Notes: generated from the sequence alone by a model not told the origin. A DNA stretch of 64,000 bases from Thermoanaerobaculia bacterium (GCA_046331385.1 JAXLQW010000001.1:3580366-3644365); one strand, 5' to 3'; positions 2,429 through 64,000 are shown, counted from the stretch's first letter. Program-made: numbers and translations.

Positions 2429-3109
2429 TCAGACGGTTTCGTCGCCGACGATCCAGCCGTCGCGCAAGCGCACGATTCGTCGGCCGACGCGCGAGTTCTC
2501 CTCCGAGTGCGTCACCTGGATGATCGTCGTACCCTCGTCGTTCAGGCGCCGGAAGAGCCGCATGATCTCGCGCCCCTGGTCGGAGTGCAGGTTCCCGGTC
2601 GGCTCGTCGGCGAGCAGCAGCTTGGGCTTCAGCACCACCGCCCGCGCCACGCCGACCAGCTGCTGTTGGCCGCCCGAGAGCTGCGACGGGTAGAGGTCCT
2701 TCTTGCCGACGATTCCGAAGCGGTCGAGGGCGTCGGCCACCAGCGCCTGGCGCTCCGCTTTCTTCAGGTCGCGGTACGACAGCGGCACCTCGAGGTTCTC
2801 GGCCACCGTCAGGTCGTCGAGCAGGTGGTACTGCTGAAAGACGAAGCCGAGGTTGGCCTTGTGCAGCTCGTTGCGCTTCTTGAGCGAGAGCTCGTGCACG
2901 GCTTCGCCGCCGAACCGGTACTCGCCCTCCCACTCGCCGTCGAGCATGCCGAGGATGTGGAGGAGCGTCGACTTGCCGGCACCCGACGGCCCCATGATGG
3001 TGACGAAATCGCCGGGCTCGATTCCGAGATCGATCCGGCGCAGCAGCCAGATCTTCCCCGCCGGCGAGGCGATGGCCTTCTCGAGGTTCTTCAGTTCGAT
3101 CAGCGGCAC
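2429..3109 (-). CDS. ABC transporter ATP-binding protein, MacB/LolD type (a separate ATPase subunit).
   Basis: The 226-aa ORF carries GPSGAGKSTLL (Walker A), LSGGQQQLVGVARA (ABC signature), LLLADEPTGNLHS (Walker B) and the H-loop VTHS. It lies immediately downstream of an ADOP permease. Confidence 0.9.
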   Translation of the reverse strand: MPLIELKNLEKAIASPAGKIWLLRRIDLGIEPGDFVTIMGPSGAGKSTLLHILGMLDGEWEGEYRFGGEAVHELSLKKRNELHKANLGFVFQQYHLLDDLTVAENLEVPLSYRDLKKAERQALVADALDRFGIVGKKDLYPSQLSGGQQQLVGVARAVVLKPKLLLADEPTGNLHSDQGREIMRLFRRLNDEGTTIIQVTHSEENSRVGRRIVRLRDGWIVGDETV

Positions 3110-5601: not shown

Positions 5602-5647
5602 GGGCGTCTCCACGTCGGGATGGGGCGCTCGAGATTCGGCATCGGGG

Positions 5648-8101: not shown

Positions 8102-8130
8102 GGCTGCCTCCAGATGGGAGTGTCCACGCT

Positions 8131-10551
8131 TCAGTCCTCGCGCAGCGCCGACGACGGATCGAGCCGCGCGGCGCGCGCCGCCGGCAGCCAGCTCGCCACG
8201 AGCCCGGCGAGCGCCAGCACGGCGAGCGCGGCGATCGCCCAGCCCGGGCGGCGCGGATCGACGCCGTAGAGCACCGAGCCGGCGAGCGGTGCGACCAGGG
8301 CGACGAGCGCGAGACCGATCGCGGCGCCGAGGCCGAGCGGCGCGACGCCGAGCCGGACGACCTGGCGCCGGACGTCGGCCGGGGTCGCGCCGAGCGCCAT
8401 GCGCACGCCGATCTCGCGCTTGCGGCGCGAGGCGGCGTAGGAGACGACGCCGTAGAGCCCGATCGCCGCCAGCGCCAGCGCTTGGGCGGCGAAGATGGCG
8501 AAGATGGCGCCGAAGACGCGGCGGTCGGCGTAGGTCTGGTGCAGCCGGTCGAGGTAGGTCGCGACGTCGAACAGCGGCGCGTCGCGCTCGACCGCCGCGA
8601 GCTCGCGGCGGACGAGCGGCGCGAGCGCGCCGGGCGAGCCCGCGGCCGACCGGACGACGAGCGCGCCGGTGCGCCAGCCGAGGCGGGCGTACGGGACGTA
8701 GAGCTGCAGGCGCGAGCGCGGCGTCTGCTCCTGGATCTCCTCGTAGACGAGATCCGGCGCGACGCCGACGACCTCGAGCCGCGGGGCGTCGGCGGCCTGG
8801 CCGTACGCGAGACGCCGCCCGAGGGCCGGGCCGTCGGGGAAGAGGCGCGTCGCGAGGGTGCGATTGACGATCGCGACCGGCGCCTGCGGCGCGGCGAATT
8901 CGGCGGCGGTGAAGGTCCGTCCGGCGTCGAGCGCGAGGCCGAGCGCGGCGAAGAACTCCGGCGAGACGCCGACCACCGAGACCGCCGGCGCTTGCTCGGG
9001 AGCGAGGCTCGAGCCCTCGGCGAGCACGTGCTCGGCGGCGCCGCCGTCGTCGGCCGGCAGCGAGGTCACGGTGGCGGCCGCCGCCACGCCCGGCAGCGCG
9101 TTCAAGCGGTCGAGGAGCGCCCGTTGGGCGACCACCCGCGACTCGGGCTGGTCGTAGCGGTCGCCCGGCAGGTAGAAGCGCGCCGAGAGGACGGGCCGCG
9201 GATCGAAACCGGCGTCGGCGCGCGCCAGCGCGAGGAAGCTGCCGAGGATCCAGCCGGCGACGGTGAGCAGCGCGAGCGAGCCGGCGAACTGCGCCGCCAC
9301 CAGGGCGCGCTGGCCGCGCGTGCCGGAGCGGTCGCCGAGCGCGCGGGCCCCGGCGTGCAGCGCCCCCGCCGCCGGCACGTCGCCGAGGCGCAGCGCGGGC
9401 AGCAGGCCGCTCGCGATCGCCGCCAGACTCGCGACCGCGGCGATGCCCGCCGCCAGGCGCGGATCGAGATCGACCGTCAGCCAGGTGGGCAACTCCTCGT
9501 CCATCGCCCCGAGCGCGGCCACGAGCCCCGCGCGCCCGAGGGCGAAGCCGAGCGCCGTGCCGGCGAGGGCGAGCAGCGCGCTCTCGACCAGCGCGATCGC
9601 CGCCAGCCGGCCGCGCGAGGCGCCGAGAGCGCGGCGCACGGCCATCTCGTTCTCGCGCGCCACGCCGCGCGCCATCTGCAGCGCGGCGACGTTGGCGCAG
9701 GCGACGAGGAGCACCGCGATCACCGCGGCGACGAGGAGGATCAGGAAGCGATGCCCGTGCTCGTCGACCAGCGAGTCGCGCAGGCCGAGGACGCGCGCCC
9801 CGCGGCCGCGGTCGGCGGCGGGTCCGGCGGCGGCGACTTTGGCGAGCACCGCGTCGACCCGCGGCTGCAGCGCGGCGGCGGTCGTGCCCGCGGGCAGCTT
9901 GGCGATCGTCCACCAGTCGCGGCCGCGGTCGTCGAGCCGGCCGTCGGCGGGGAAGGGCACGTAGGCGCGGGTGTGCTCGGGCAGACCGAAGCCGGGCGGC
10001 AGGACGCCGACGACCGTCAGCGCGCGGTCGTTCATCTCGAGCTTGGCGCCGATCGCGCCCGGGTCGCCGGCGAAGCGGTCCTGCCAGAGGCCGTAGGAGA
10101 GGACCACCGCCTCCTCGTGGCCGAACTCGCGCTCGTCGTCCTGGCGGAAGGCGCGGCCGAGGATGGGACGCACGCCGAGCACGTCGAAGAAGTTGGTCTC
10201 GACCGACGCGCCGTCGATCCGCCGCGGCTCGTCGACGCCGGTGAGCGTCAGGTTGCGGTGCACCAGGCTGCTGACCGCGGCGAACGTTCCCGACTCGGCG
10301 AGAGCGTGAATCTCCGGCCGCGACAATCCGTCGTCGTCCGAAGCGGCGCGCTCGAACGTCGGCTCGAAGGCGACGAGGCCGGTGCCCTCGACCGCGGGCA
10401 GCGGGCGGAAGAGCAGGGAGTAGGCGAGGGTCACGACCGCGGTGGTCGCGCCGGTGCCGAGCGCCAGCGTCGCGATCGCGGCGGCGGTGATGCCGCGGCC
10501 GCGCCCGAGCTGACGCAGCGCCGGCCGGACTTCGGCGAGCCAGGAGATCAT
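8131..10551 (-). CDS. ADOP-type ABC permease, paralog F.
   Basis: This is part of the 1820-aa artefact ORF. The start was chosen at MISWLAEVRPALRQLGRGRGITAAAIATLALGTGATTAVVTLAYSLLFRPLPAVEGTGLV (cat at 10549-10551), 2 nt from the stop of the upstream paralog. The protein ends in SSALRED. Confidence 0.8.
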   Translation of the reverse strand: MISWLAEVRPALRQLGRGRGITAAAIATLALGTGATTAVVTLAYSLLFRPLPAVEGTGLVAFEPTFERAASDDDGLSRPEIHALAESGTFAAVSSLVHRNLTLTGVDEPRRIDGASVETNFFDVLGVRPILGRAFRQDDEREFGHEEAVVLSYGLWQDRFAGDPGAIGAKLEMNDRALTVVGVLPPGFGLPEHTRAYVPFPADGRLDDRGRDWWTIAKLPAGTTAAALQPRVDAVLAKVAAAGPAADRGRGARVLGLRDSLVDEHGHRFLILLVAAVIAVLLVACANVAALQMARGVARENEMAVRRALGASRGRLAAIALVESALLALAGTALGFALGRAGLVAALGAMDEELPTWLTVDLDPRLAAGIAAVASLAAIASGLLPALRLGDVPAAGALHAGARALGDRSGTRGQRALVAAQFAGSLALLTVAGWILGSFLALARADAGFDPRPVLSARFYLPGDRYDQPESRVVAQRALLDRLNALPGVAAAATVTSLPADDGGAAEHVLAEGSSLAPEQAPAVSVVGVSPEFFAALGLALDAGRTFTAAEFAAPQAPVAIVNRTLATRLFPDGPALGRRLAYGQAADAPRLEVVGVAPDLVYEEIQEQTPRSRLQLYVPYARLGWRTGALVVRSAAGSPGALAPLVRRELAAVERDAPLFDVATYLDRLHQTYADRRVFGAIFAIFAAQALALAAIGLYGVVSYAASRRKREIGVRMALGATPADVRRQVVRLGVAPLGLGAAIGLALVALVAPLAGSVLYGVDPRRPGWAIAALAVLALAGLVASWLPAARAARLDPSSALRED

Positions 10552-10553
10552 CC

Positions 10554-12947
10554 TCAGTCCTCCCGCAGGGCGCGCGCCGGGTCGAGGCGCGCGGCCGAGA
10601 CCGCCGGCACGAGGCAGGCGAGCCAGGTCACGAGCGTGAGCGTCACGACGCCCGCGGCGAGGGCGAGCGGATCGGTCGGCGCGGTCTCGAAGAGCAGCGA
10701 GGTCAGCAGGCGGCTCGCGGCGAGCGCGCCGAGGAGCCCGAGCGCCAGGCCGGCCGCGAGCAGGCGGCTGCCCGAGCCGAGCACCAGCCGGACGAGGCCG
10801 AGGCCGGTGCCGCCGAGCGCCAGGCGGACGCCGAACTCGCGGCGGCGACGCGCCACGGTGCGCGCGACGAGGGCGTAGAGCCCGATCGCCGCGAGCGCCA
10901 ACGCCAGGCCGGCGAGGCTGGCGAGCAGGGCGGCGGTGAAACGCGGCTGGCCGAGGGAGCGCGCCACCACGTCGCGCATCGAGCGCACCTCGGCGAGCGG
11001 CAGCTCGGGATCGAGTCCGGCGATCGCCCGCCGCGCCGCGGTGGCGACGCTTCCGGGCGGCAGCGAGGTGCGCGCGATCAGGGTCATGAAGTTGAGCGGT
11101 TGCTGCGCGCTCGCGAAGTAGATCGCCGGCCGCGGCGTCTCCTCGAGCGCCGAGAGGTGGACGTCGCCGACGACGCCGACGATCTCGGCCTCGACGCCTT
11201 CGTCGCCCCCCCAACGGATTCGCAAGCGGCGGCCGACCGCGTCGGCGGAGGGCCAGAGGAGGCGCGCGGTGGACCGGTTGACCAGGATCGCGAGCGGCCG
11301 GTCGGCGGCGTCGCGCGCGTCGAGGGCGCGGCCGGCGACGAGCGGCACGCCGAGGGTGGCGAGCGCGCCGGGGCTCACGATGCGGATGTCGGCGACCGGC
11401 TCCTCGCCCTTCTTCGGCGCCTCGCGATCGAGGGCGACGAAGGAGGTCGCCGAACCCATGCCGGAGAGCGGCGCCCAGCTGATCGCGCCGGCCGCCTCGA
11501 CGCCGGGCAGCGCCGCGATCCGGCGCTCGGCCTCGGCGAAGAGCGCCACCACCTTGGCTTCGTCCTGGTAAGCCGGATTGCGGCCCGGCAACGTGAGGTC
11601 CATCGCCACCAGACGCGAGGCGCGGAACCCCGGATCGACGCCGGCGAGCCGGACGAGGCTGCGGGTGAGCAGCGCGGCCGAGGAGAGCAGCACGAGCGAC
11701 AAGGCGATCTCGGCGACGACCAGCACGCGGGCGAGGCGGGCGCGCGGCGCGACCACACTGGCCGAGCGCAGGCTCTCGGCGTCGCGGCCGCTGGCGAGAA
11801 CCGGCACCAGGGCGGTGAGCGCGGCGGCGGCGAGGGCGGCGCCGACCGCGAAGGCGAGCGCCCCGGCGTCCAGGCCGACCGCGACCCACGGCGGCAGCTC
11901 GAGCGGCGCCCAGGCGACGAGCAGGGCGACGCCGCCGCGCGCCAGCACGATTCCGGCGGCGGCGCCCGCGCCGGCGATCACCAGGCTCTCGGCGAAGAAC
12001 TGGCGCGCGAGCTGCCAGCGCGAGGCGCCGAGGGCGCGGCGCACCGCGATCTCGCGCTCGCGCTCGGCGAGCCGCGCGAGCAGCAGGCCGGCGACGTTGG
12101 CGCAACCGATGAGGAGCACGACGCCGACCGCCGCCGCGAGCGCCGCGAGCGGCGAGCGCAGCTGGGCGATGAGGGGACCGGAATAGGGTTCGACCACCGC
12201 GCTCCAGCCGGCGTCGACATCGGGACGCTCGCGCTCGAGGGCGGCGGCGATGCCGACGAGCTCGGCATCGGCCGATTCGAGGGTCGCGCCGGGAGCGAGG
12301 CGGGCGAGGCCGGTCAGGTAGCGGCCGCCCGAGTCGCGGTGGCGCTCGCCGAGCGCGAGCGGAATCCAGAGGTCGGCGGCCTCCGGCGCTGGGAAAGCCT
12401 CGGGAGCGACGCCGACGATCATCGTCGGCGTGCCGTTGACCCGCAGCATCCGGCCGACGAGCCCGCCGTCCGAGCCCCAGCGGCGGAAGAGCTCGTGCGA
12501 CAGGACGCAGACGTCGGGGGCGGTCTCGAGGGCGTCGGCGGGCGCGAGGAGCCGTCCGACCGCGGCCCGAGCCCGGAAGAGAGGGAAGAAGTCGCCGGTC
12601 ACGATCCCCGAGCGCAGCCGCTCGGGCTCGCCGATGCCGGAGACGTTGGTCGGGAAGACGATGAATCCGGCGATCTGCGTCAGCGTCCTGGCGCGCTCGC
12701 GCCAGCGGATCAGGTTGCCCGGATTGATGACGTTGCGCTCGACGCCGCGCTTGGGATTCGTCTCGGAGACCCGCACCAGCCGATCCGCCTCGGCGATCGG
12801 CGCCGGGCGGACGAGGACGGCCTCGAGCACCGAGAAGATCGCGGTGTTGGCGCCGATGGCGAGCGCCAGCGTGGCGACCGCGGCGACCGCGGCGAGCGGC
12901 CGGCGGCTCCAGCCGTGGACGGCCTGGCGGAGCTCCTGGACGAACAT
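10554..12947 (-). CDS. ADOP-type ABC permease, paralog E.
   Basis: The 797-aa ORF starts MFVQELRQAVHGWSRRPLAAVAAVATLALAIGANTAIFSVLEAVLVRPAPIAEADRLV and ends in ARALRED. Confidence 0.85.
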   Translation of the reverse strand: MFVQELRQAVHGWSRRPLAAVAAVATLALAIGANTAIFSVLEAVLVRPAPIAEADRLVRVSETNPKRGVERNVINPGNLIRWRERARTLTQIAGFIVFPTNVSGIGEPERLRSGIVTGDFFPLFRARAAVGRLLAPADALETAPDVCVLSHELFRRWGSDGGLVGRMLRVNGTPTMIVGVAPEAFPAPEAADLWIPLALGERHRDSGGRYLTGLARLAPGATLESADAELVGIAAALERERPDVDAGWSAVVEPYSGPLIAQLRSPLAALAAAVGVVLLIGCANVAGLLLARLAEREREIAVRRALGASRWQLARQFFAESLVIAGAGAAAGIVLARGGVALLVAWAPLELPPWVAVGLDAGALAFAVGAALAAAALTALVPVLASGRDAESLRSASVVAPRARLARVLVVAEIALSLVLLSSAALLTRSLVRLAGVDPGFRASRLVAMDLTLPGRNPAYQDEAKVVALFAEAERRIAALPGVEAAGAISWAPLSGMGSATSFVALDREAPKKGEEPVADIRIVSPGALATLGVPLVAGRALDARDAADRPLAILVNRSTARLLWPSADAVGRRLRIRWGGDEGVEAEIVGVVGDVHLSALEETPRPAIYFASAQQPLNFMTLIARTSLPPGSVATAARRAIAGLDPELPLAEVRSMRDVVARSLGQPRFTAALLASLAGLALALAAIGLYALVARTVARRRREFGVRLALGGTGLGLVRLVLGSGSRLLAAGLALGLLGALAASRLLTSLLFETAPTDPLALAAGVVTLTLVTWLACLVPAVSAARLDPARALRED

Positions 12948-12950
12948 GGG

Positions 12951-15371
12951 TCAGCCCTCCTGGCGCAGAGCGGTGGCGGGGTCGATCCGCACCGCGCGCC
13001 GGGTCGGCGCGAGCGCGGCGGCGAGCGCGGCGACGAGCAGCACCGCCGGCACGGCGAGGAAGACCGCCGGGTCGAAGGCGCGCACGCCGTAGAAGAAGCT
13101 CGCCACCGGCCGCGCGAGCGCGGCGGCGATCCCCGCGCCGAGCGCGAGCCCCCAGGCGAGGTCGGCGAGACCGCGCCCGACCACCAGGCGGACGATGGCG
13201 CCGTCGGCCGCGCCGAGCGCGCGGCGCAGGCCGATCTCTCCCGCGCGCCGCAGCACGCCGTGGGCGGCGAGCCCGTAGACGCCGGCCGCCGCGAGCACCA
13301 GGCCGGCGAGAGCGAAGAAGCCGAAGAGCGAGGCGAGGAACTGGGCGCCGAAGCGGCCGGTCGAGACCCACTCGGCGACCGTCCGCAGGTAGTAGACCGG
13401 CATGTCGGGATCGAGCTCGGTGATCGCCTTGCGCAGCGCCGGCGCGAGCGCCGCCGCTTGACCGGGCGCGGCGCGCAGGGCGAGGAAGGCGAAGCTCGGC
13501 ACGTCCTGCGCGAGCGGCACGTAGAACGTCGGCTGGAGCTCGTTGTCGACCCGGTCCTGCTGCAGGTCGGGCGCCACGCCGACGATCGTCCACCAGGGCT
13601 CGGAGCCGTCCTGGGAGGCGAAGCGGATCCGCCGTCCGATCGGTTCGCCGGCGGGCAGCAGGGCGTCGACCAGCCGCCGGTTGACCACCGCGACGCGCCG
13701 GTCACCGGCGCCGTCGGTCGCCGCCAAGTTGCGCCCGGCGAGCAGCCGTACGCCGACGGTGTCGAAGTAGGAGGGCGTGACGCGCGCGATCTGCGCCAAG
13801 TGCCGGTCTTCGGGACGGGCGGTCTGGCCCTCGACCTCGATCCAGTCGCCGCCGACGAAGCTGCCGGGCAGACTGGAGGTGATCGTGGCGGACTCGACCC
13901 CGGGCAGCGCGCGCAGTCGCTCCTCGGCGCGGGCGTAGAAGGCGAGGCGCGCCGCGTCGTCCGGGTAGGCTTGCTCGAACAGCGCCACGCGCCCGCCGAG
14001 GACGCGGTCGCCGTCGACCCCGACCGAGGCCTCGCGCAGCAGCTGCACGCCGCGCGCCGCCAGCCCGGCCGCGGTCACCAGGCCGCAGCACAGGGCGATC
14101 TGCGCCACGACCAGCATCCGCCCGGCGCGCGCCCGGCCGGAGGAGGCGCCGCGCGCCGCCTGGCGCAGCTCGCGCTGGACGTCGAAACGCGTGCTGGCGA
14201 ACGCCGGCCCGAGCCCGGCGAGCAGAGCCGAGACGGCGACGACGCCGAGAGTGAAGGCGATCGAGCGGCCGTCGAGCGCGAAGTGGACCCAGGTCGGGAT
14301 GTCCATCGTCTCGCTCGCCCGCGCCAGGTCGAGCGTGCGCTCGCCGGCCCACTGCGCGAGCGCCAGGCCGGCGACGCTGGCGGTCGCGGCGATCACCACC
14401 GCCTCGACCATGCCGTGCAGCACGAGCCGTGCGCGCGAGGCGCCGAGCGCGGCGCGTACCGCGAGCGCCGGCCGCCGGGCGAGGCCGCGCGCCAACAGGA
14501 GATTGGCGACGTCGGCGCAGGCGATCAGCAGCACGAGCACGACCGCGGCGAACATGGTCGAGAGCTGGCTCGAGGTGCGGCGACCGACGAACTCCTGGGC
14601 GAACGGCTTGACCACCGAGCGCAGGCCCCGCGGATAGGCCGGGTCGGCGGCGCTCTGGCGGGCGAGCGCCGCGTCGAGCTCGGCGGCGGCGGCGGCGATC
14701 GACCGGCCGGGCGCGAGGTGGCCGAGCACCTCGACGGTCGCCGACTTGTCGCGCGCCAGGCCAGCCGCCTCGGCCGGGATGGTCACCCAGGCCTCCTGCT
14801 CGTACGGGAAGGTGAAGCCGGCCGGCATCACACCGACGATCGTCGCCGGCGCGCCGTTGACCCGCACGGCGCGGCCGAGCACCGCCGGGTCGGCCGCGTA
14901 GCGCCGCCGCCAGAGCCAGTCGGAGAGCACCAGCGCGGTCGGCGCGCCGGGCGCGACGTCGCCGGCGGCGAAGCCGCGGCCGAGCGCCGGCCGGACGCCG
15001 AGGATGGCGAAGACCTCGGGCGTGACGAAGGTGCCGTCGAGGCGCTCGGGTTCGTCGCGGTCGGCGAGATTGACGGTGCCCTCGTAGAAGGCGCCGAAGT
15101 CCTCGAAGCTCGCGAGCGTCTTCTTCCAGTCGACGAAGTCGACGTACGGCACCTCGAGGCTCGAGCGGTCGCGCGCCGGATCGGAGAGTTCGACGTGCAG
15201 CAGGCGGCCGGCGTCGCGATACGGCAGCGGCCGGAGCAGGAAGGCGTCGATCGCCCCGAACATGAAGAGCGTCAGGCCGATGCCGACGGTCAGGATCGCC
15301 GCCGCGAGGATGGTGAAGCTGCGCCCCCGGCGCAGGGCGCGCAACGCTTGCAGGACTTCGTCGAGGATCAT
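12951..15371 (-). CDS. ADOP-type ABC permease, paralog D.
   Basis: The 806-aa ORF starts MILDEVLQALRALRRGRSFTILAAAILTVGIGLTLFMFGAIDAFLLRPLPYRDAGRLL and ends in ATALRQEG. Confidence 0.85.
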   Translation of the reverse strand: MILDEVLQALRALRRGRSFTILAAAILTVGIGLTLFMFGAIDAFLLRPLPYRDAGRLLHVELSDPARDRSSLEVPYVDFVDWKKTLASFEDFGAFYEGTVNLADRDEPERLDGTFVTPEVFAILGVRPALGRGFAAGDVAPGAPTALVLSDWLWRRRYAADPAVLGRAVRVNGAPATIVGVMPAGFTFPYEQEAWVTIPAEAAGLARDKSATVEVLGHLAPGRSIAAAAAELDAALARQSAADPAYPRGLRSVVKPFAQEFVGRRTSSQLSTMFAAVVLVLLIACADVANLLLARGLARRPALAVRAALGASRARLVLHGMVEAVVIAATASVAGLALAQWAGERTLDLARASETMDIPTWVHFALDGRSIAFTLGVVAVSALLAGLGPAFASTRFDVQRELRQAARGASSGRARAGRMLVVAQIALCCGLVTAAGLAARGVQLLREASVGVDGDRVLGGRVALFEQAYPDDAARLAFYARAEERLRALPGVESATITSSLPGSFVGGDWIEVEGQTARPEDRHLAQIARVTPSYFDTVGVRLLAGRNLAATDGAGDRRVAVVNRRLVDALLPAGEPIGRRIRFASQDGSEPWWTIVGVAPDLQQDRVDNELQPTFYVPLAQDVPSFAFLALRAAPGQAAALAPALRKAITELDPDMPVYYLRTVAEWVSTGRFGAQFLASLFGFFALAGLVLAAAGVYGLAAHGVLRRAGEIGLRRALGAADGAIVRLVVGRGLADLAWGLALGAGIAAALARPVASFFYGVRAFDPAVFLAVPAVLLVAALAAALAPTRRAVRIDPATALRQEG

Positions 15372-15394
15372 CGGTCTCTCCTGGCGCGTCGAAT

Positions 15395-17887
15395 TCAGTC
15401 TTCGCGCAGCGCGCGCGAGGGATCGATGCGCGCCGCCCGGTCGGCGGGTAACGCGGCGGCCGCCACGAGGAAGAAGGCGAGCACCACGGCGGCGCCGGCG
15501 AGCGACGAGACGTCGAGCGCCGCCACCTGGTAGAGCCGCGCCGCGGCGAGACGGCCGAGCGCCGCCGAGAGCAGCAGCCCGGCCGCCAGGCCGAGGGCTC
15601 CCAGCCGCCAGACCTCCGCGAGCACCAGGGTGACGATGCGCAGGGGGTCGGCGCCGACCGCCATGCGGATGCCGAATTCGCGCCGGCGCCGGGCGATGTT
15701 GAAGGCGAGCAGGCCCCAGAGTCCGAGCGCCGCGAGCAGCGTGGCGGCGCCGGCGAAAGCGCTCGCCAGCCCAGCGGCGATGCGCTCGACCGAGAGCGTC
15801 GCATCGAGCTGGCGCGCCAGGGGCTCGAGGTCGAGCACCGGCAGCTCGGGCGCGACGCGTTGCGCGGCCTGGCGCAGGCCCGGGGCGATGGCGACCGGAT
15901 TCGCGGAACGGGCGTAGAAGTTGACCCCGCCGCCGCCGTAGGCCTGCGCGAAGGGCCGATAGACGAAGCGCGGCAGGTCGTCGCGTACCGTGGTCGCGAG
16001 AGCGTCGGCGACCACCCCGACGATCTCGGCCGTGGTGTCGTCACGATTGAAGGTGATGTGACGGCCGATCGCGTCGCCCTGCGGGAAGTACTTGTCGGCG
16101 AAGTTGCGCGTCACCACGACGACCTTGGGCGCGTCGGCGCCGTCGGCGGGGGTGAAGTCGCGTCCGCCGACCAGGCGCATGCCGACGGTCGAGAAGAAGC
16201 CCGGGGTCACGGCGTTGAAGCTCGGGTTCATGTTCTCGTCCTCGGCCGGCTTGTAGCCCTCGGCCTTGATCGTCGAGCTCATGGTGTCGCCCGAGAGCAG
16301 GCCGATCTCGGCGGCCCCGGCCGCTTCGACTCCGGGGGACGCGGCGACCGCCTCGAGCAGGTCGGTCGCGATGCGTCGCGCCCGGACCGGGTCGTAGCCG
16401 TTGGTCGACGGGTCGACGGCGAAAGTGGCGAGCGGCGCGACGTCGAAGCCGAGCGGTACCGAATAGAGGCGCTTCAGGCTGTGAGCAAAGAGCCCGGCGA
16501 CCGAGAGCAGCGCGAAGGAGAGCGCCAGCTGCAGCGCCACCGCGAGGCGGCGCGAGCTCAGGTGCCGGCGTCCGCCGGTCGAGCCGCGGCCGTCGCGCAG
16601 GCCGCTCTGCGGGTCGACGCCGAGCGACTCGAGCGCCGGCAGCACCGAAGTGGCGACGCCGCAGACGAGCGCGATTGCGGCGGCGAAGAGCAGAATCCGC
16701 CAGTCGAGCTCGCTGCTGAAGGCGTCGACCTGGTGCGGCGCGAGCCACCGCGCCGCCGGCCCGTTGGCGAGCGCGGCGAGTCCCGCGCCCGCCATGCCGC
16801 CCGCGACGCCGAGCACCACGCCCTCGGCCGCCAGCCGGCGCACGAGGTCCAGTCGGCCGGCGCCGAGCGCCAGGTGCACCGCGAGCTCCTTGTGGCGGGC
16901 GGCGGCGCGCGCCGCGAGCAGACCGCCGACGTTGGCGCAGGCGATCACCAGCACCAGGCCGAGCATCGCGAGCAGGAACTTCAAGTGGCGCGAGGTCTCG
17001 CCGCGCAGGTCCGAGCCTCCGGCGGCGCCGGGCTCGAGCACCAGGCGCTTCTTCAGGTAGCGCTCGCGGAAGGTCGCCGAGGTCGGCGTCGGCGCTTCGG
17101 CGAGATCCTGCTCCAGCATCTGGCGGTAGAAGGGCGCGATCGCCGCCATCGCCCGCGCGCGATCCATCCCCGGGGCGAGGCGGCCGACGAGGTAGAGCCA
17201 GTAGCCGCGTCGCTTTTCGAGCCCGCTCCACAGCGGCACGATCGTCTTCTTCATCCCGAGCGGCACCCAGAGCTCGGGAGCGAGCCCGACTTGGACGCCG
17301 TGGAAGCCGCGCGCCGCGACGCCGACGACGGTCATCGCCGTGCCGTTGATCCGCACGCTGCCGCCGACGGCGTCGGTCCGGCCGCCGAATCGCCGTTGCC
17401 AGGACTCCCACGACAGCACGACGACCGGCGAGGCGCCGTCCTGCCCGTCGTCGGCCGCCGCGAGCAGCCGCCCGGCCGCCGCGCGCACGCCGAGGACGTC
17501 GAAGTAGTTGCCCGAGACGATCTCGGCTCCGACCTCCTCGGCCGGGCCGGAGAGCGCCAGGTTGACCTCGACCGGCACGCGGGCGACGAGGCCCGAGAAG
17601 ACGTCGCTGCGCGTCGCGAGCTCGCGGTAGGTCGGCAGCGAGAGCGGCTCGGTGAACTCGGTCACCCGGTTGGTCGAGCCGCTCACCGGCCCCGGGCTGT
17701 GGAGGATGACGAGCTCCTCGGGGGCGCGCACCGGCAGCGGCCGCAGCAGGATCTGGTCGAAGAACGAGGCGAGCACGGTGGTCGCCGCGATCCCGAGGCC
17801 GAGGATGGCGACCGACACGGCGACCAGAGCGGGGCTGCGGGAGAGCGAGCGCAGGGCGAGGCGCAGGTCGTCGCGGACTCCGGTCAT
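15395..17887 (-). CDS. ADOP-type ABC permease, paralog C.
   Basis: The 830-aa ORF starts MTGVRDDLRLALRSLSRSPALVAVSVAILGLGIAATTVLASFFDQILLRPLPVRAPEELV and ends in SRALRED. Confidence 0.85.
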   Translation of the reverse strand: MTGVRDDLRLALRSLSRSPALVAVSVAILGLGIAATTVLASFFDQILLRPLPVRAPEELVILHSPGPVSGSTNRVTEFTEPLSLPTYRELATRSDVFSGLVARVPVEVNLALSGPAEEVGAEIVSGNYFDVLGVRAAAGRLLAAADDGQDGASPVVVLSWESWQRRFGGRTDAVGGSVRINGTAMTVVGVAARGFHGVQVGLAPELWVPLGMKKTIVPLWSGLEKRRGYWLYLVGRLAPGMDRARAMAAIAPFYRQMLEQDLAEAPTPTSATFRERYLKKRLVLEPGAAGGSDLRGETSRHLKFLLAMLGLVLVIACANVGGLLAARAAARHKELAVHLALGAGRLDLVRRLAAEGVVLGVAGGMAGAGLAALANGPAARWLAPHQVDAFSSELDWRILLFAAAIALVCGVATSVLPALESLGVDPQSGLRDGRGSTGGRRHLSSRRLAVALQLALSFALLSVAGLFAHSLKRLYSVPLGFDVAPLATFAVDPSTNGYDPVRARRIATDLLEAVAASPGVEAAGAAEIGLLSGDTMSSTIKAEGYKPAEDENMNPSFNAVTPGFFSTVGMRLVGGRDFTPADGADAPKVVVVTRNFADKYFPQGDAIGRHITFNRDDTTAEIVGVVADALATTVRDDLPRFVYRPFAQAYGGGGVNFYARSANPVAIAPGLRQAAQRVAPELPVLDLEPLARQLDATLSVERIAAGLASAFAGAATLLAALGLWGLLAFNIARRRREFGIRMAVGADPLRIVTLVLAEVWRLGALGLAAGLLLSAALGRLAAARLYQVAALDVSSLAGAAVVLAFFLVAAAALPADRAARIDPSRALRED

Positions 17888-17915
17888 CGCGGCTCTCCTC
17901 TCGGAATCGTCGGGC

Positions 17916-20354
17916 TCACTCGGACCTCAGGGCCGCGGCGGGCTCGATCGCCAGCGCGCGGCGCGCCGGGACGGCGACCGCGAGCGCCGCGACCGCGAAG
18001 AGCAGGGCGGGCACGCCGGCGAAGGTGAGCAGGTCGCCGGGCGACAGGCCGTAGAGCAGGCTGGCGAGCATCCGCGAGAGGCCGAACGCGATCGCCAGCC
18101 CGACCGCCGCGCCGATCGCGACCGGGCGCGCGGCGTCGCCGAAGACCAGCCGCAGCAGGTTGCGCCGTCCGGCGCCGAGCGCCACCCGCACCGCGAGCTC
18201 GCGGCGGCGCGCGGCGACCGCGTAGGCGACCACGCCGTAGAGGCCGACCGCGGCGAGGAACATGCCGAGCGCGCCGAGCGAACCGGCGACCGAGGCGGCC
18301 AGGCGCTGCGGCAGGGTCGAGGTCGCGGCGATCTCGACCAGCGGCAGCGGCAGTCCGGCGGGCAGATCGGGGTCGATGCCGCGGAACAGCTCGCCGACCG
18401 TCGCGGCGAGCGCGGCCGTCGAGCCGCTCGTGCGCACGAGAAGGGACATTTCGTGCAGGTCGATCTGCGAGGCGGCGACCCAGTAGAAGAGCCGCGGCTG
18501 CTCGCCGAGCGAGCGCGCCTTGATGTCGCGCGCCACGCCGACCACCCGGTACGGATTGCGTGTCGCTCCGTCGAGCAGGTAGAAGGTGCGGCCGACCGCG
18601 CCGCCGGGGAAGAACCGGTCGGCGAAGGTGCGGTTGACGATCGCCACCCGGGGCGACTCCTGGCGGTCACCGGGCTCGAAGTCGCGCCCCTCGAGCGGAA
18701 TGTCGAGCAGCGAGAAGAAACCGGGCGAGACGATGTTGGCGTCGGCCTCGAAGCCGTTCTCGCCGGGGCTCTCGACGCCGTCGACTTCGATCCCGCCGAG
18801 CCCGAGCGAGTTCAGGTCGAGCGGCACCATGCGCGCCGCGGCGGCGCCGGTGACATCGGGCAGGGAGCGCGAGCGCTCGAGCAGCTCGTCGAGCTTCGCC
18901 TGGGCGGCGGCGCCGCGCAGCCCGGCGAGATCGAGGTTGAAGTCGAACGCCACGACGCCGGAGGTCCGGAAGCCGGGATCGATGTGTCGCGCGGTGTCGA
19001 GCGCGCGCAGCAGCAGGCCCGCGACCACGAGCAGCACGAGCGACAGTGCGACCTGCCCGCCGACCAGGAAGCGCCGCCAGCGCAGCGGCCGCCGTCCGAC
19101 GGTCGCCGTGCCGTCGCGCAGCGCCGCTTGCGGATCGCGCCGCGCCGCGCTGAGCGCCGGGACCAGGCCGAAGACGAGACCGGTCGCGAGCGCCAAGGCC
19201 AGGGCGAAGAGCGCCGCCCGCCAGTCGACCGGAAAGTCGAGCGCCACCGGGAAGGGCGTCGGCGGGCGGAAGGCGGCGATCAGGGCGACCCCCCAGCGCG
19301 CCAGCAGCAGCGCCGGCGCCGCCGCCAGCGCGAACAGCAGCAGAGTCTCGACCAGGAGCTGCGCGACGATCCGGCGCGTCGAGGCGCCGAGCGCCTGGCG
19401 CACCGCGAGCTCCCGCTGCCGGGCCTCGCCGCGGGCGAGCAGCATCGAGGCGACGTTCATGCAGGCGATCGCCAGCACCAGACCGACGAGGACGAAGAGC
19501 AGGGCCGAAAAGAGCCGCACGGCGGCGCGCCCCTCGCCGGGCACCGGCGCGGTGGGCAGCACGCGCGCGCCGCGGTGGGCATGGCTGGCGGGATAGGCCT
19601 GAGCGATGCGCGCGGCGATCGCGCCGAGCTCGGCCTGCGCCGAGGCGATCGAGGCGCCGGGAGCGAGCCGGCCGCCGATCAGCAGCCAGGCCGACGCGCG
19701 CGACTTGAGCTTGCGGGTCTGCCATTCGTCGTCCGACAACGCCGTCGACAGCGGCACGAAGACCTCGGGGCGTAGGCCGAAGATGAGGCCGGTGAAGTCG
19801 GCGGGCGCGACTCCCACCAGCGTGAACGGCCGGCTGTCGACGCGGATGACCGAGCCGATCGCCGCGCGATCGCCGGCGAGCTCGCGGACGAAGAAGTCGT
19901 GGCTGACGACCGCTACCGGGGCTCCGCCGGTCGGCAAGTCCTCCTCGGGGAGGAAGAACCGGCCGAGCTCGGGGTGGACGTCGAGGGCGGTGAAGTAGGT
20001 CGCCGAGACGCTGAAGCCGAGCACCCGTCGCGAGGTCTCGCCCACCCGCACGCTGAACGGGTTCATGTCGAAGCCGTAGACGTTTTCGAGGCTCTTCGCC
20101 TGGCGGTAGTCGAGCAGATCGAGGTAGCCGAAGGTGTCGGCGCCCTCGCCGTTCTCGGTGCGCACGACGTCGACGATCCGGTCCGGGCGCGAGATGCCCG
20201 ACATCGGCCGCAGCAGGAGCGCCTGGACGATCGAGAAGACGGCGGTCGCGCCGCCGATGCCGATCGCCAGCGACGCCACGGCGGCCAGGGTGAAGCCCGG
20301 GCTGGCTGCGAGGCGGCGCCGGGCGAGACCGAACGGCGACGAGGCTCGGGACAT
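17916..20354 (-). CDS. ADOP-type ABC permease, paralog B.
   Basis: The 812-aa ORF starts MSRASSPFGLARRRLAASPGFTLAAVASLAIGIGGATAVFSIVQALLLRPMSGISRPDRIV and ends in AAALRSE. Confidence 0.85.
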   Translation of the reverse strand: MSRASSPFGLARRRLAASPGFTLAAVASLAIGIGGATAVFSIVQALLLRPMSGISRPDRIVDVVRTENGEGADTFGYLDLLDYRQAKSLENVYGFDMNPFSVRVGETSRRVLGFSVSATYFTALDVHPELGRFFLPEEDLPTGGAPVAVVSHDFFVRELAGDRAAIGSVIRVDSRPFTLVGVAPADFTGLIFGLRPEVFVPLSTALSDDEWQTRKLKSRASAWLLIGGRLAPGASIASAQAELGAIAARIAQAYPASHAHRGARVLPTAPVPGEGRAAVRLFSALLFVLVGLVLAIACMNVASMLLARGEARQRELAVRQALGASTRRIVAQLLVETLLLFALAAAPALLLARWGVALIAAFRPPTPFPVALDFPVDWRAALFALALALATGLVFGLVPALSAARRDPQAALRDGTATVGRRPLRWRRFLVGGQVALSLVLLVVAGLLLRALDTARHIDPGFRTSGVVAFDFNLDLAGLRGAAAQAKLDELLERSRSLPDVTGAAAARMVPLDLNSLGLGGIEVDGVESPGENGFEADANIVSPGFFSLLDIPLEGRDFEPGDRQESPRVAIVNRTFADRFFPGGAVGRTFYLLDGATRNPYRVVGVARDIKARSLGEQPRLFYWVAASQIDLHEMSLLVRTSGSTAALAATVGELFRGIDPDLPAGLPLPLVEIAATSTLPQRLAASVAGSLGALGMFLAAVGLYGVVAYAVAARRRELAVRVALGAGRRNLLRLVFGDAARPVAIGAAVGLAIAFGLSRMLASLLYGLSPGDLLTFAGVPALLFAVAALAVAVPARRALAIEPAAALRSE

Positions 20355-20369
20355 GACGATTCCTCCGGG

Positions 20370-22808
20370 CTATTCGCTGCGCAGGACGGCGATGGGCTCG
20401 GTGCGCGCCGCGGCGAGCGCCGGTCCGAGGCCGGCGCCGACGGCGACCGCGGCGATGAAGAGAGCGACGGCAATCCAGGTGGCCGGGTCGAGCGGACTCA
20501 CTCCGGCGAGCTGGCTGGCGACCAGGCGCGACAGCGCCGCGCCGCCTGCGAGGCCGGCCGCGAGGCCGATCGCCGCCAGGACGACCGCCTCCGAGAGGAT
20601 CCAGCGCGCGATGCGCGGCGCGGTGGCGCCGATCGCCATGCGCACGCCCACTTCGCGCGCGCGTTGCGTGACCAGGAAGGCGACCAGCGCGTAGAGCCCG
20701 GTCGCCGACAGGAAGATGGCGAGGGTCGCGAAGGCGCCCACCATCCACAGCGTCAGGCGGCGGTCGGCGAGCGACGCGGAGAGCACCTCGTCGAGGGTGA
20801 GGAGGGTGTGCACCGGCTGCTGCGGCGCGATCTCGCGCACCGCCGCGCGCACCGCGGCGGCGAGGCTCGAAGTCGGCAGCGCCGAGCGCACCACCAACAC
20901 GATGTCGTTGGCGAACATGTTGGCGACCCGCGGATCGGTGGCGAGGAAGGTGAGCTCCGGCAGCGACTCCTGTTCGAGGCCGCCCTGGCGCACGTCGCCC
21001 ACCACGCCGACGATCGTGACGTAGTCCTCGCCGCCGAAGCGGACGCGGCGGCCGAGAACGTCGCCCGCCGGGAAATGGCGGCGGACGAAGGCCTGGTTGA
21101 CCAGGCAGGGCGCCGGCGAGCGATCGTCTTGCGAGGCCGCGGCGTCGCTGGCGGCGAGGAAGCGCCCGGCCTTGAGCGGCACGCCGAGGGCGCGGAAGGC
21201 GTCGGCGCTCGCGGCCCGCGTCTCGACCCACCATTCCTCGCCCGCCGGCGGCGCCTGCAGGCCCTCGATGGTGTACGAGGTGTTGCGCCCCCAGTTCTGT
21301 ATCGGCAACAGCGAAACCACGCCCGCCGACTCGACCCCGGGCAGCGCCGAGAGCCGATCGAGCATCGGCGCGAGGAGCGTCGCGCCGACCGTGCCGTTCG
21401 CCACCATCCGCTCGTCGGGCGACAGGTGGAGGGTCAGCACGCCGACGCGATCGAAGCCCGGGGAGACGCCCTGCAGATGGAAGAAGGTGCGCAGCAGCAG
21501 TCCGGCGCCGAGCAGGAGGGTGGTCGAGAGCGCCACCTGCGCCGTGACCAGCGTCCGCCGCGCGCGCTGGCGACCGCGACCCCCAGTGGCGCGCAGGCCG
21601 CTCTCGACCAGCTCGCGGGCGAGTTGGTCGCGCGACAGGGCGAGGGTCGGGGCGAGACCGAAGAGCAGTCCCGTCGCGCCGCCGATCGCGAGCAGGAAGG
21701 CGAACGCCGCGAAGTCGATGCGCAGGGCGCCGAGGTCGGGCAGCAGCTGGGCGACGCGCGGCGCGAGCCAGGCGAGCAGCCCGCGCGCCACCGCTACCGC
21801 CAGCACCAGGCCGGCCGCGGTCAGCAGCAGGTTCTCGACCGCGAGCTGGCGAACGACCTGGAAGCGCGACGCGCCGAGCGCGGCGCGGATCGACATCTCG
21901 CGCTGGCGGGCGGCGGCGCGAGCGAGAGCGAGACCGGCGAGGTTGGCGCAGGCGATCGCCAGCACCGCACCGACCGCGCCGAAGAGCAGCAGCAGCGTCG
22001 GCCGGATCGAGCCGCGGATCGCCTCGGTCAGCGGCAGGACGCGCACCCCGCGCCCGGTCTGCGCGTCGGGGTACTCCATTTCGAGCCGGGCGGCGATCTC
22101 CTCGAGCTGCTTCCTGCCGCGCTCGATCGGCACGCCGGGGGCGAGCTTGCCGAGCACGCCGAGGTAGTGCTCGCCGCGCATCTCGGCGAGCTCGCCCGGC
22201 AGGTGCGGCAGGTAGAGATCCACCTTGGCGCCGTAGGTCGGATAGCGGAAGGAATCGGGAAGCACGCCGACGACGACGTGGGCGACGCCGTCGAGCACCA
22301 GCGGCCGGCCGACGACGCCGGGATCGGCGCCGAAGCGCCGGCGCCAGAAGCGCTCGGCGAGCACCGCCACGCGGCTCGACTCCGGGCGCTCGTCGTCGGC
22401 GGTGAACAGGCGGCCGACGATCGGCCGCGCGCCGAGCACCGAGAAGAGCGAGGCAGTGGATTCGAGCGCCGGCAGGCGCTCCGGGTCGCCCGCGCCCTGC
22501 AAGTTGCGGCTGGCGGCGGTGTAGGCGGCGAGCGCCGCGAAGGAGTCGGCGCGCGCGCTCCAGTCGCGGAAATTGGGCGCCGAAGCCGTGCCGAAGCCGG
22601 CGTCGTGGCTGTAGGTTTCCCAGATCCGCACCAAGCGATCGGAGTCGGGGTAGGGCAGCGGCGCGATCAGCTCGCGGTGGACGACCGAGAAAATCGCCAC
22701 GTTCGCCCCGACGCCGAGGGCGAGAATGGCGACCACCGCGATGGCGTAGCCCGGGACGCGGGCGAGCGAGCGCAGAGCGACGCGGAACTCCGCCAGGAGC
22801 GCGGACAC
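20370..22808 (-). CDS. ADOP-type ABC permease, paralog A. It is the first of the array in transcription order.
   Basis: The 812-aa ORF starts MSALLAEFRVALRSLARVPGYAIAVVAILALGVGANVAIFSVVHRELIAPLPYPDSDRLV and ends in IAVLRSE. Confidence 0.85.
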   Translation of the reverse strand: MSALLAEFRVALRSLARVPGYAIAVVAILALGVGANVAIFSVVHRELIAPLPYPDSDRLVRIWETYSHDAGFGTASAPNFRDWSARADSFAALAAYTAASRNLQGAGDPERLPALESTASLFSVLGARPIVGRLFTADDERPESSRVAVLAERFWRRRFGADPGVVGRPLVLDGVAHVVVGVLPDSFRYPTYGAKVDLYLPHLPGELAEMRGEHYLGVLGKLAPGVPIERGRKQLEEIAARLEMEYPDAQTGRGVRVLPLTEAIRGSIRPTLLLLFGAVGAVLAIACANLAGLALARAAARQREMSIRAALGASRFQVVRQLAVENLLLTAAGLVLAVAVARGLLAWLAPRVAQLLPDLGALRIDFAAFAFLLAIGGATGLLFGLAPTLALSRDQLARELVESGLRATGGRGRQRARRTLVTAQVALSTTLLLGAGLLLRTFFHLQGVSPGFDRVGVLTLHLSPDERMVANGTVGATLLAPMLDRLSALPGVESAGVVSLLPIQNWGRNTSYTIEGLQAPPAGEEWWVETRAASADAFRALGVPLKAGRFLAASDAAASQDDRSPAPCLVNQAFVRRHFPAGDVLGRRVRFGGEDYVTIVGVVGDVRQGGLEQESLPELTFLATDPRVANMFANDIVLVVRSALPTSSLAAAVRAAVREIAPQQPVHTLLTLDEVLSASLADRRLTLWMVGAFATLAIFLSATGLYALVAFLVTQRAREVGVRMAIGATAPRIARWILSEAVVLAAIGLAAGLAGGAALSRLVASQLAGVSPLDPATWIAVALFIAAVAVGAGLGPALAAARTEPIAVLRSE

Positions 22809-22818
22809 CGCTCCTCCG

Positions 22819-23528
<710 letters not shown>

Positions 23529-23532
<4 letters not shown>

Positions 23533-24776
23533 TCCAGTCGGACGCGGTCGAACGCGTCCCAGGTCGACATGTCGGAGAGGATCACGCGGTCCCCTTCAGC
23601 GAGGCCGCTTTGGACTTCGATGAGGTGCACCGAGCCGCGCCCGAGCTTCACCTGCACGCGGGCCGCGTCGTCGCCGTCGGCGCCGACCCGGAACAGGGTC
23701 ACGGTCGACTCGGGCTGACCGAACGCCGGGCGGCCGACGAAGAGCACGTCCGAGAGATGCTCGAGCTCGATCGTGCCGTCGACCGACAGGTCGGGGCGCG
23801 CGCCCTTGGGCAGGGTCCCGAGGAGCTGGACGTCGACGGTGACCGTGCCGTTCTGCACCGCCGGATCGATGCGCAGCACCTTGCCCTCGACCACGCCGTT
23901 GCGGGTGTCGATCTTCGCCGGCTGGCCGAGGAGCACGTCGCGCGCCTGGGTCTCGGCGATTTTCAACTCCGCCTTGAGCGGTTCGGGGCGGGCGACGCGC
24001 GCCAGCGTCGTGCCCGGCGTCACCCGCTGGCCGACCTCGACCGGCAGCTGCTGCAGGACGCCGGCGAGCCCGGCGCGCACCTTGAGCGCCTCGACTTCGC
24101 CGGCGCGCAGGCGGTGGAGCTCGCGCAACTGATCGACCCGCGCCTGCTGCGCCGCGAGCTGGGCCTGGATCGAGGCCTCGCCGCCGGTCAGGCGCTGGGT
24201 CTCGAGGTCGGTGCGGGTTTTCAGCTCCTCGGCCCGCACGCGCGAGATCTTGAGCTGCAGGGCGGAGACCAGCCCCTCCTTGGCGAGCTGCTCGTTGGCC
24301 TCGGCCTCGAGCCGCGCCTGTTGGTAGTCGGCGTCGACCGACGCGGCCTGGGCTTTCTGGTCGAGCTTGGTGCTCTCGAGCCGGACGCGAAGGGCGGCGA
24401 GGTCGGCTTCGGCGGCGCGCTCCTGGAACTCGGCGTCGCGCGCCGAGACCTCGAGCTCCGGGTTGGTCAGCTCGAGGATCACGCTGTCGGGTTCCACCGC
24501 GGCTCCCGGCTGCAGCAGGAGGCGCTCGATCCGGCCTTCGGAGGCGGCCGAGATCCAGCGAATGTCGATCGGCACCAGCGTCCCGTTGCCGCGCACCTCG
24601 CGCACGAAGTCGCCGCGCCGGACGGTGTCGATCCACAGCGTGCCCTTCTCGACCTGCGGTGCCGCCGGCTTGAGGCGGGCGAGGCCGACGGTCACGAGCG
24701 CGATCGCCAGCGTCGCGCCGCCTCCGACGAGAAGTCGCCGGCGCGTGCGGTTCGGGGGCGTGCGAGGAATGTCCAT
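23529..24776 (-). CDS. HlyD/MacA-family periplasmic adaptor (membrane-fusion protein) with a long coiled-coil hairpin.
   Basis: The protein has an N-terminal TM anchor (RRRLLVGGGATLAIALVTVGLA), then a Q/A/E/L-rich coiled coil (RVRLESTKLDQKAQAASVDADYQQARLEAEANEQL...), then beta-barrel/MP-proximal regions. The ORF track starts at a TTG at 24792-24794. The ATG at 24774-24776 (MDIPRTPP) is chosen here because a sigma-54 promoter element overlaps the TTG. Confidence 0.8.
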
Positions 24777-24790
24777 CGCATCTCTCCATG

Positions 24791-24805
24791 GCAACGTCGG
24801 TGCCA
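24791..24805 (-). promoter_or_regulatory. Candidate sigma-54 (RpoN) -24/-12 promoter, TGGCAC-N5-TTGC on the minus strand, directly upstream of the adaptor/ATPase/ADOP operon.
   Basis: The reverse complement of 24786-24807 reads cTGGCACcgacgTTGCcatgg. This is a perfect match to the GG-N10-GC core consensus (TGGCAC N5 TTGC). The predicted start site is around 24779, just 5' of the ATG at 24776. Confidence 0.45.
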
Positions 24806-24992
24806 GGTCCGGAGTTTCAACCTAACTTACGATCCGGCCTCGGTTTGGGTTGCGCGGCGGCGGGCCGGCGCGGGGGCCGCCGTGTGCGCTGCCGGGACGA
24901 GACTGTGCCGGAAGCGGACACCGCCGCGCTCCCGGCGGGCCCCTGCCGAAAGTGGGGATCGACCGTCGGCCGAGAATGAATAGAATGCGCCG

Positions 24993-54122: not shown

Positions 54123-54156
54123 TGATCGATCCTCGCGGCCCGCGGGCGGCGCGCGC

Positions 54157-63269: not shown

Positions 63270-64000
<731 letters not shown>

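Follow-up and report, generated by a model that had tools for sequence, protein, structure and literature searches.

Between positions 24805 and 24791 on the minus strand of a 64,000-nucleotide (nt) stretch of Thermoanaerobaculia bacterium DNA (GCA_046331385.1, JAXLQW010000001.1:3580366-3644365; the whole stretch is called the window here), the motif TGGCAC-N5-TTGC is predicted to be a functional sigma-54 (RpoN) promoter, a reading to which we give a probability of roughly 0.85. The operon that it would control encodes a periplasmic adaptor, an ABC-type ATPase and eight tandem acidobacterial duplicated orphan permeases (ADOP). The initial annotation had already read the site in this way, and our comparison of related loci supports it: the element is conserved upstream of homologous adaptors, and an enhancer and a linked activator gene are conserved along with it.

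In soil Acidobacteriota, ADOP permeases make up some of the largest families of paralogues, and they are poorly understood. The arrangement described here would tie an array of eight of them to one adaptor, two ATPases, one enhancer-dependent promoter and a dedicated response regulator, and the same circuit recurs in Acidobacteriota and Verrucomicrobiota. It also offers an experimental handle, in that an activating signal or a phosphomimetic form of the regulator should switch on the whole array and reveal the export substrate. As a regulatory element the site is of a fairly ordinary kind, a well-supported sigma-54 promoter of a widespread and apparently undescribed regulon module; less ordinary are its near-leaderless geometry and the placing of eight paralogous permeases under one switch.

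The promoter core and its conservation

The minus strand reads cTGGCACcgacgTTGCcatgg from 24806 to 24786, letter for letter as quoted in the initial annotation, and contains an exact -24/-12 consensus in which GG and GC stand 10 nt apart, as in a sigma-54 promoter core (Table 1). The worry that such a pattern might be frequent by chance was not borne out in the window. The exact pattern TGGCACNNNNNTTGC occurs a single time on the two strands of the window, whose G+C content is 71.7%, for 0.05 occurrences expected from dinucleotide-preserving shuffles; at least one match was present in 5 of 100 shuffles. When one mismatch was allowed, two matches were found for 2.35 expected, and the exact match alone stands out. 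The motif is intergenic: a gap of 216 nt separates the minus-strand adaptor gene from a divergent Ser/Thr kinase gene, which starts at 24993 on the plus strand, and the motif stands in this gap near a gene start and oriented toward the adaptor, with 14 nt from the -12 C to the ATG at 24776. At the thresholds used, a search of the minus strand of this gap for a sigma-70-like promoter, which might have accounted for the GGAGAG discussed below, was negative.

A scan of species-representative genomes gave 80 related loci from Acidobacteriota and Verrucomicrobiota, with adaptors 54-63% identical to that of the window, and a metagenome scan gave 80 further loci (adaptor identity up to 65%), bringing the total to 160, of which 143 are distinct. 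Because no closer relatives were found (none above 63% adaptor identity in the genome scan or 65% in the metagenome scan), the metagenome loci served as an independent test set in place of fine-scale footprinting. A simple weighted sigma-54 consensus was applied to the 150 nt before each adaptor start. Of the 80 upstream regions, 25 scored at least 13, compared with 1 of 80 reverse complements and 0.3% of shuffles; at a threshold of 12 the corresponding figures were 47, 13 and 3%. This enrichment was reproduced in an independent set of 69 metagenome loci.

Of 44 distinct sites taken from beyond the window, 43 have T at -26, 43 have A at -22 and 36 have C at -23; the site filter demanded GG and GC, whose invariance in this set is partly by construction. 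A matrix built from these sites, with the window excluded, places the minus-strand motif second, at 17.6 bits, among 127,964 window positions (mean -23, standard deviation 8.7), the only higher match, at 51987-51971 on the minus strand, being likewise intergenic and oriented toward a gene. When 12 diverse and otherwise unalignable intergenic regions were aligned with MAFFT, the invariant columns fell almost entirely in the core of the enhancer described below, in T-GG-A at -24, in GC at -12 and in the start ATGGA.

The window site, TGGCAccgacgtTGCCA, is symmetric, and several Bryobacterales loci also carry TGGCAG-N5-GTGCC; the near-palindrome TGGCA-N7-TGCCA could be the operator of a dimeric repressor or other regulator, its likeness to a sigma-54 promoter being incidental. 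We consider this quite improbable. The symmetry is not kept in the family, where -12 halves such as TCGCT, TTGTA, CTGCT and ATGCA break it, whereas T-GG-A at -24 and GC at -12 are nearly invariant at their fixed 10-nt separation, and a second conserved element at a fixed distance, about 110 nt away, is in keeping with an enhancer-dependent promoter and not with an operator.

The plus strand, too, has GG and GC at the right distance, in TGGCAA-N5-GTGC, and a functional element there would drive the divergent kinase gene, a role that we judge highly improbable. The initial annotation had called this mirror image the weaker of the two, in agreement with its position outside the 14 best matrix matches listed (lowest 9.2 bits). 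The enhancer would stand downstream of a plus-strand promoter, and the kinase has a sigma-70-like promoter of its own just before its start. In addition, the upstream neighbour varies in the two related loci examined, being a threonyl-tRNA synthetase gene in one (L014) and a permease gene in the other (L027).

A conserved tandem dyad and a linked activator gene

Aligned DNA upstream of the related promoters contains two adjacent dyads, TGTCCG-N4-CGGACA and CGTCCCA-N4-CGGACA. Expectation-maximisation on 44 loci, not including the window, gave a 37-nt enhancer matrix, which was applied to both strands of the whole window. Its top match is at 24883-24919 on the minus strand (11.2 nats), and the second-best is the same place read on the opposite strand. 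The initial annotation had pointed to 24810-24990 as the interval for inverted-repeat enhancer sites, and a conserved tandem dyad does lie there, at 24883-24920, with the spacing typical of the family. In a direct search of the gap for inverted repeats, two short G+C-rich pairs at 24858-24882 were the sole result; the enhancer, whose arms are short and imperfect, escaped it and emerged only when related loci were compared. The TCCC core of the second dyad is invariant in the 12-region alignment. We propose that the two dyads are putative activator-binding (enhancer) sites of the sigma-54 promoter.

In the window the enhancer-promoter offset is 113 nt, for a family mode of 107-114 nt. Across the 160 loci, 126 distinct enhancer matches were found on the adaptor strand at 12 nats or more; 115 of them have a sigma-54-like element 40-200 nt downstream, and in 96 of these 115 pairs the offset is 107-114 nt. 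The minor groups, at 98-100, 77-78, 66-67, 122 and 133 nt, follow steps of about 11 nt, the length of a helical turn, with four single pairs off-step. On the opposite strand, used as a control, 7 of 38 enhancer-like matches have a promoter-like partner and the offsets are scattered. The arrangement is reproduced in metagenome loci that contributed to neither matrix. The five shuffles with one exact match leave some room for the motif to be a functionless coincidence, an explanation about as improbable as a plus-strand promoter: chance would have to place it in the gap of 216 nt, correctly oriented, at 113 nt from an enhancer that was predicted independently, and in an arrangement that recurs in 98 of 143 distinct loci.

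Between enhancer and promoter lies an AT-rich tract, and comparable stretches occur at the matching position in related loci. This tract is possibly a site of DNA bending or of IHF-type binding; a by-eye look for the IHF consensus WATCAANNNNTTR on both strands of 24811-24833 gave no convincing match.

In Verrucomicrobiota of the Udaeobacter type (L022, L032, L036, L040, L044, L049, L054, L098, L101, L103, L113, L116 and L134), the enhancer and promoter are found 385-470 nt before the adaptor, ahead of a small unannotated open reading frame (ORF), with a spacing of 112-114 nt. The activator gene of these loci is on the same strand, about 3.4 kb upstream.

The initial annotation listed two sigma-54 activators in the window, both of which are real: an NtrC-type protein at the end of the ADOP cluster (REC and Sigma54_activat domains, 829..2) and a GAF-domain protein starting at 63270 (GAF and Sigma54_activat). 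The first, which we call the cluster activator, matches Response_reg (E=6e-23) and Sigma54_activat (E=4e-43) in Pfam, and the acidic pocket of its receiver domain is intact (DD, the D of LIDLNY, the T of MTAW and the K of QKPW). Orthologues that are 62-72% identical by tblastn, receiver domain included, are encoded on the adaptor strand in 28 loci of two phyla, usually after the permeases and the second ATPase, and about 3.4 kb upstream in Verrucomicrobiota. All 27 of these loci with enough upstream DNA carry the enhancer and promoter pair, at an offset of 108-114 nt except for one at 77 nt. Full-length orthologues, as seen in L014 and L027, consist of REC, AAA+ and C-terminal HTH_8 domains, and a helix, LGLSRSALYRRL, is conserved among the orthologues.

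The loop that contacts sigma-54 reads GAFTDA instead of GAFTGA in the window and in 26 of 27 orthologues, and GAYTDA in the remaining one, across the two phyla. GAFTDA has been listed as a variant compatible with activation and is present in Desulfovibrio vulgaris DVU2106 (PMC4641369), and the effect of the same G-to-D change was left open in another study (PMC10714721). The NtrC equivalog TIGR01818 has a cutoff of 558.6 bits, above the scores of both the window fragment (221.6) and the full-length L014 orthologue (367.2), and the orthologues score below the cutoffs of all named equivalogs. By these profile scores the protein is a member of the wider NtrC family and not NtrC itself. Because of the gene linkage, the conserved helix and the conserved enhancer site, we assign the cluster activator to the promoter as its predicted regulator, and infer that it is the protein that would bind the dyads.

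A real sigma-54 promoter might also answer to another activator, either the GAF-domain protein or one encoded elsewhere, leaving the cluster regulator to control something else. The presence of that second activator gene in the window and of a second strong sigma-54 promoter at 51987-51971, which points to several such circuits in this organism, speak for this possibility, as does the fact that the DNA-binding domain of the cluster activator, whose binding at 24883-24920 is a prediction, is outside the window. We consider it unlikely, if the least unlikely of the alternatives. It is the orthologue of the cluster regulator that is linked to the module in the 28 loci, with the same enhancer and spacing wherever this could be tested; its helix-turn-helix is strongly conserved, matching the conserved enhancer, and no GAF-type activator was seen beside the module in the loci examined.

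The adaptor start, the leader and the ADOP operon

In the ORF list the adaptor extends over 23529..24794 and starts at a TTG (24794-24792) that belongs to the -12 element, as the initial annotation had remarked. An in-frame ATG is found 18 nt downstream, at 24776. Homologous adaptors align from the first residue of the protein that begins at this ATG in 74 of 80 genome loci and 73 of 80 metagenome loci, and the listed N-termini of homologues read MD[IV]PR; none of the homologues has the six extra residues implied by the TTG. Judged by these alignments, the true start is the ATG at 24776, in place of the listed TTG and in line with what the initial annotation had proposed, because homologues begin at that residue.

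The geometry of sigma-54 promoters is fixed, transcription starting about 12 positions after the -12 C. With C 24791 in that role, the transcript would start near 24779 and begin GCG-AUG, with a leader of about 3 nt. In related promoters the spacing between the -12 C and the ATG clusters at 13-29 nt. Where it is 20-29 nt, a GGAG at -8 to -13 is usual, while about 17 distinct homologous promoters, mostly of Terriglobales and Bryobacteraceae types, have 13-18 nt, and only 3 of these 17 contain a Shine-Dalgarno-like tetramer. The pattern of this short-distance group fits leaderless or near-leaderless messages, and would define a natural family of sigma-54 promoters whose leaders are very short or missing, of which we found no description in the limited literature searched.

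The very short or leaderless 5' untranslated region of the initial annotation is upheld in part: the homologous promoters that are equally short, most without a Shine-Dalgarno sequence, favour it, and a GGAGAG just before the ATG speaks against a leaderless message. This hexamer is upstream of the predicted start, and so falls outside the predicted transcript. It is possibly a chance occurrence or a relic, since Shine-Dalgarno-like tetramers are present in 13% of random 13-mers of matching composition. The gap may also contain a second, upstream transcription start.

The divergent kinase gene presents a similar picture on the other strand. Its sigma-70-like TCGACC-16-TAGAAT (24959-24998, plus strand) ends 6 nt before a GTG at 24993, with an ATG at 24996, and because of this short distance the kinase message is probably leaderless too.

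The cluster itself (Table 1) opens with the adaptor, which scores 100.6 bits against the NCBIfam RND_mfp model (cutoff 94.9), followed by the first ATPase, 72-83% identical across related loci. MacB_PCD and FtsX domains were found twice each in all five permeases scanned against Pfam; the three others (20354-17916, 17887-15395 and 15371-12951) were assigned from ORF size and codon bias. The first and the last permease, at 787.4 and 716.4 bits, exceed the cutoff of the ADOP family TIGR03434 (622.3 bits). A counterpart of the second ATPase, about 45% identical, directly precedes the activator gene in many related loci. The ORF 2337-2933 was rejected as the gene of that region, as it is in the wrong frame and has no Pfam match; the true gene is the ABC ATPase at 3109-2429. 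The GGDEF gene begins 88 nt after this ATPase and overlaps the activator gene by 4 nt, and its insertion before the activator suggests a possible link to cyclic di-GMP signalling.

Table 1. Features of the promoter region and of the ADOP cluster, in window coordinates.
Feature	Position	Strand	Remarks
-24 element TGGCAC	24800..24805	-	GG at 24804-24803
Spacer cgacg	24799-24795	-	between -24 and -12 elements
-12 element TTGC	24791..24794	-	GC at 24792-24791; overlaps the start TTG of the ORF list
Putative enhancer site 1, TGTCCGCTTCCGGCACA	24904..24920	-	imperfect TGTCCG-N4-CGGACA type; centre about -133 from predicted start
Putative enhancer site 2, CGTCCCGGCAGCGCACA	24883..24899	-	CGTCCCA-N4-CGGACA type; centre about -112 from predicted start
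AT-rich tract	24811..24833	.	39% G+C against 70% for the whole gap; between enhancer and promoter
Predicted transcription start	24778..24780	-	+1 near 24779, 12 positions after C 24791; from promoter geometry
GGAGAG, Shine-Dalgarno-like hexamer	24781..24786	-	5 nt before ATG; at -7..-2 of promoter
Periplasmic adaptor, HlyD/MacA type	23529..24776	-	first gene; 415 residues; Pfam HlyD_3 and HlyD_D23
MacB/LolD-type ABC ATPase 1	22819..23532	-	Pfam ABC_tran; 4-nt overlap with adaptor gene
Eight tandem ADOP duplicated permease genes	3178..22808	-	intergenic gaps 2-46 nt; GGAG-type ribosome site before each
Permeases 1-4	22808-20370, 20354-17916, 17887-15395, 15371-12951	-	ADOP array
Permeases 5-8	12947-10554, 10551-8131, 8101-5648, 5601-3178	-	ADOP array
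MacB-type ABC ATPase 2	2429..3109	-	Pfam ABC_tran, E=1e-30; 68 nt after last permease
7TM-PAS-GGDEF protein, putative diguanylate cyclase	826..2340	-	Pfam HisKA_7TM, PAS_4, GGDEF
NtrC-family response-regulator activator	1..829	-	REC and sigma-54 AAA+; 276-residue fragment, cut by window edge

Over the first ten genes the gaps range from -4 to 46 nt, and a ribosome site of GGAG type precedes each internal gene. A sigma-70-like promoter was looked for inside the array and not found, and the frequency of terminator-like sites there is no higher than in shuffles. All 13 genes would be co-transcribed, the transcript probably taking in ATPase 2, the GGDEF protein and the activator as well.

Other loci differ in composition. 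They contain from none to five or more permease copies, which are 28-41% identical to the first permease of the window, and the permeases are far less conserved across loci than the ATPase (72-83%) or the activator (62-72%). The position of the GGDEF gene is taken by a TolC-like protein or by nothing.

Several points weigh against the site being the sigma-54 promoter of this operon under the cluster activator. The enhancer match of the window is weak, at 11.2 nats for 15-27 in many loci, and both of its right half-sites depart from CGGACA; the right arms CGGCAC and CGCACA are also found in L012, L034, L058 and L046 (Bryobacteraceae and other Acidobacteriota). The enhancer and promoter pair is missing from 45 of the 143 distinct loci, seven of which have a CGTCTAA of the extracytoplasmic function (ECF) type instead; sigma-54 control of the adaptor operon is common, not universal, among related loci. 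The window ends before the DNA-binding domain of the activator, a partner histidine kinase was not seen in the cluster, and the rpoN gene is not within the 64 kb. Internal promoters could be present in the 68-nt gap ahead of ATPase 2 and the 88-nt gap ahead of the GGDEF gene. Finally, GGAGAG has the form of the ribosome sites before the internal genes P3 and P4, and its placement suggests that some transcripts start further upstream.

CGTCTAA, which resembles the -10 element of ECF-sigma promoters, is found upstream of the adaptor in L002, L010, L030, L057, L071, L074, L079, L080, L125 and L133, in most cases about 20-30 nt before the ATG. It is within 70 nt of the start in ten distinct loci, alone in seven and downstream of a sigma-54 promoter in three. 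The alternative sigma factor that serves this operon therefore seems to vary from lineage to lineage.

On the reading that we prefer, sigma-54 holoenzyme would occupy TGGCAC-N5-TTGC (24805-24791, minus strand) as a closed complex, and the NtrC-family regulator (829..1) would bind the two dyads at 24920-24883, about 110-135 nt upstream. Assembly of the activator into an ATPase ring, probably after phosphorylation of the receiver domain, and looping of the DNA over the AT-rich tract would bring it into contact with the polymerase and open the promoter. Transcription would then start near 24779 and translation at ATG 24776. The message would encode the adaptor, ATPase 1 and the eight ADOP permeases, and probably ATPase 2, the GGDEF protein and the activator, which, as part of its own operon, would be subject to positive feedback.

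A further extension is tentative, and we would give it somewhat less than even odds. In this extension the mRNA would be essentially leaderless, with the AUG 2-6 nt from the 5' end, a configuration recurring without Shine-Dalgarno sequences in about 17 lineages; a single autoregulated switch would produce a transcript of about 24 kb; and one adaptor/ATPase pair would serve eight divergent but interchangeable ADOP permeases, making the supposed orphans alternative membrane modules of one tripartite exporter.

Elsewhere in the window, the best match to the family matrix (18.6 bits) is a second sigma-54-type promoter, TTGGCATGCCCCTCGCT, at 51971-51987 on the minus strand. It lies about 70 nt before an ATG at 51901 that is preceded by the ribosome site GGAGG. 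The gene concerned (49007-51901, minus strand) encodes a CarboxypepD_reg/TonB-dependent-receptor-like outer membrane protein with a signal peptide, and the ORF list starts it too far upstream, at a GTG at 52015. An NtrY-like histidine kinase gene (54157-56364, minus strand; NtrY_N, HAMP, PAS, HisKA and HATPase domains) is followed by a gene for a SelB-type elongation factor (52107-54227, minus strand). As listed, these two ORFs overlap by about 70 nt, and one of their start codons is probably wrong for this reason.

Relation to known regulatory and export systems

The predicted circuit resembles the glnAp2/NtrC system of Escherichia coli in its -24 GG and -12 GC core, in the two adjacent dyads more than 100 nt upstream for a regulator of REC-AAA+-HTH architecture, and in the looping activation proposed here. 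The NtrC sites of glnAp2 are reportedly centred near -140 and -108, close to the values of about -133 and -112 in the window. An NtrC site reads TGCACC-N5-GGTGCA, against TGTCCG-N4-CGGACA here. The two systems also differ in their targets, a nitrogen assimilation gene in the one case and a transporter operon in the other, and in the leader of about 3 nt predicted for the window.

Many response-regulator activators paired with nearby operons, some of them for transporters, have been described in the sigma-54 regulome of D. vulgaris, which includes OrpR/DVU2106, and most sigma-54 promoters of that organism are less than 100 nt from the closest activator site (PMC4641369). That regulome differs from the present case in phylum, activator family and targets, and the paper makes no mention of efflux, HlyD or ABC transporters, and thus of an ADOP or MacB-type operon (PMC4641369). 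None of these genes is mentioned in a 2011 comparative paper on sigma-54 either, and no description of this sigma-54/ADOP circuit was found in the limited literature searched (ADOP, Acidobacteria, MacB, FtsX, efflux, leaderless).

The encoded proteins recall the MacAB-TolC exporters, with which they have in common an adaptor of HlyD/MacA type, an ATPase of MacB/LolD type, and permeases with the MacB periplasmic core and FtsX; in one related locus (L027) a gene for a TolC-like outer membrane protein stands between those of ATPase 2 and the activator. In contrast to MacAB-TolC, ATPase and permease are separate here, the permeases are internally duplicated and present in eight copies, and there are two ATPases. 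The ATPase is below the equivalog cutoffs of both MacB (NF007826, 229 vs 966 bits) and DarD (259 vs 375), and the adaptor reaches 62 of 450 against DarC, so that the proteins do not qualify as MacB or DarD/DarC/DarB equivalogs.

The ADOP family (TIGR03434) owes the word orphan in its name to the lack of an adjacent ATPase gene. The array of the window departs from this description, as it is flanked by ATPase genes at 23532-22819 and 3109-2429, and in many related loci as well ADOP copies stand behind an adaptor and an ATPase.

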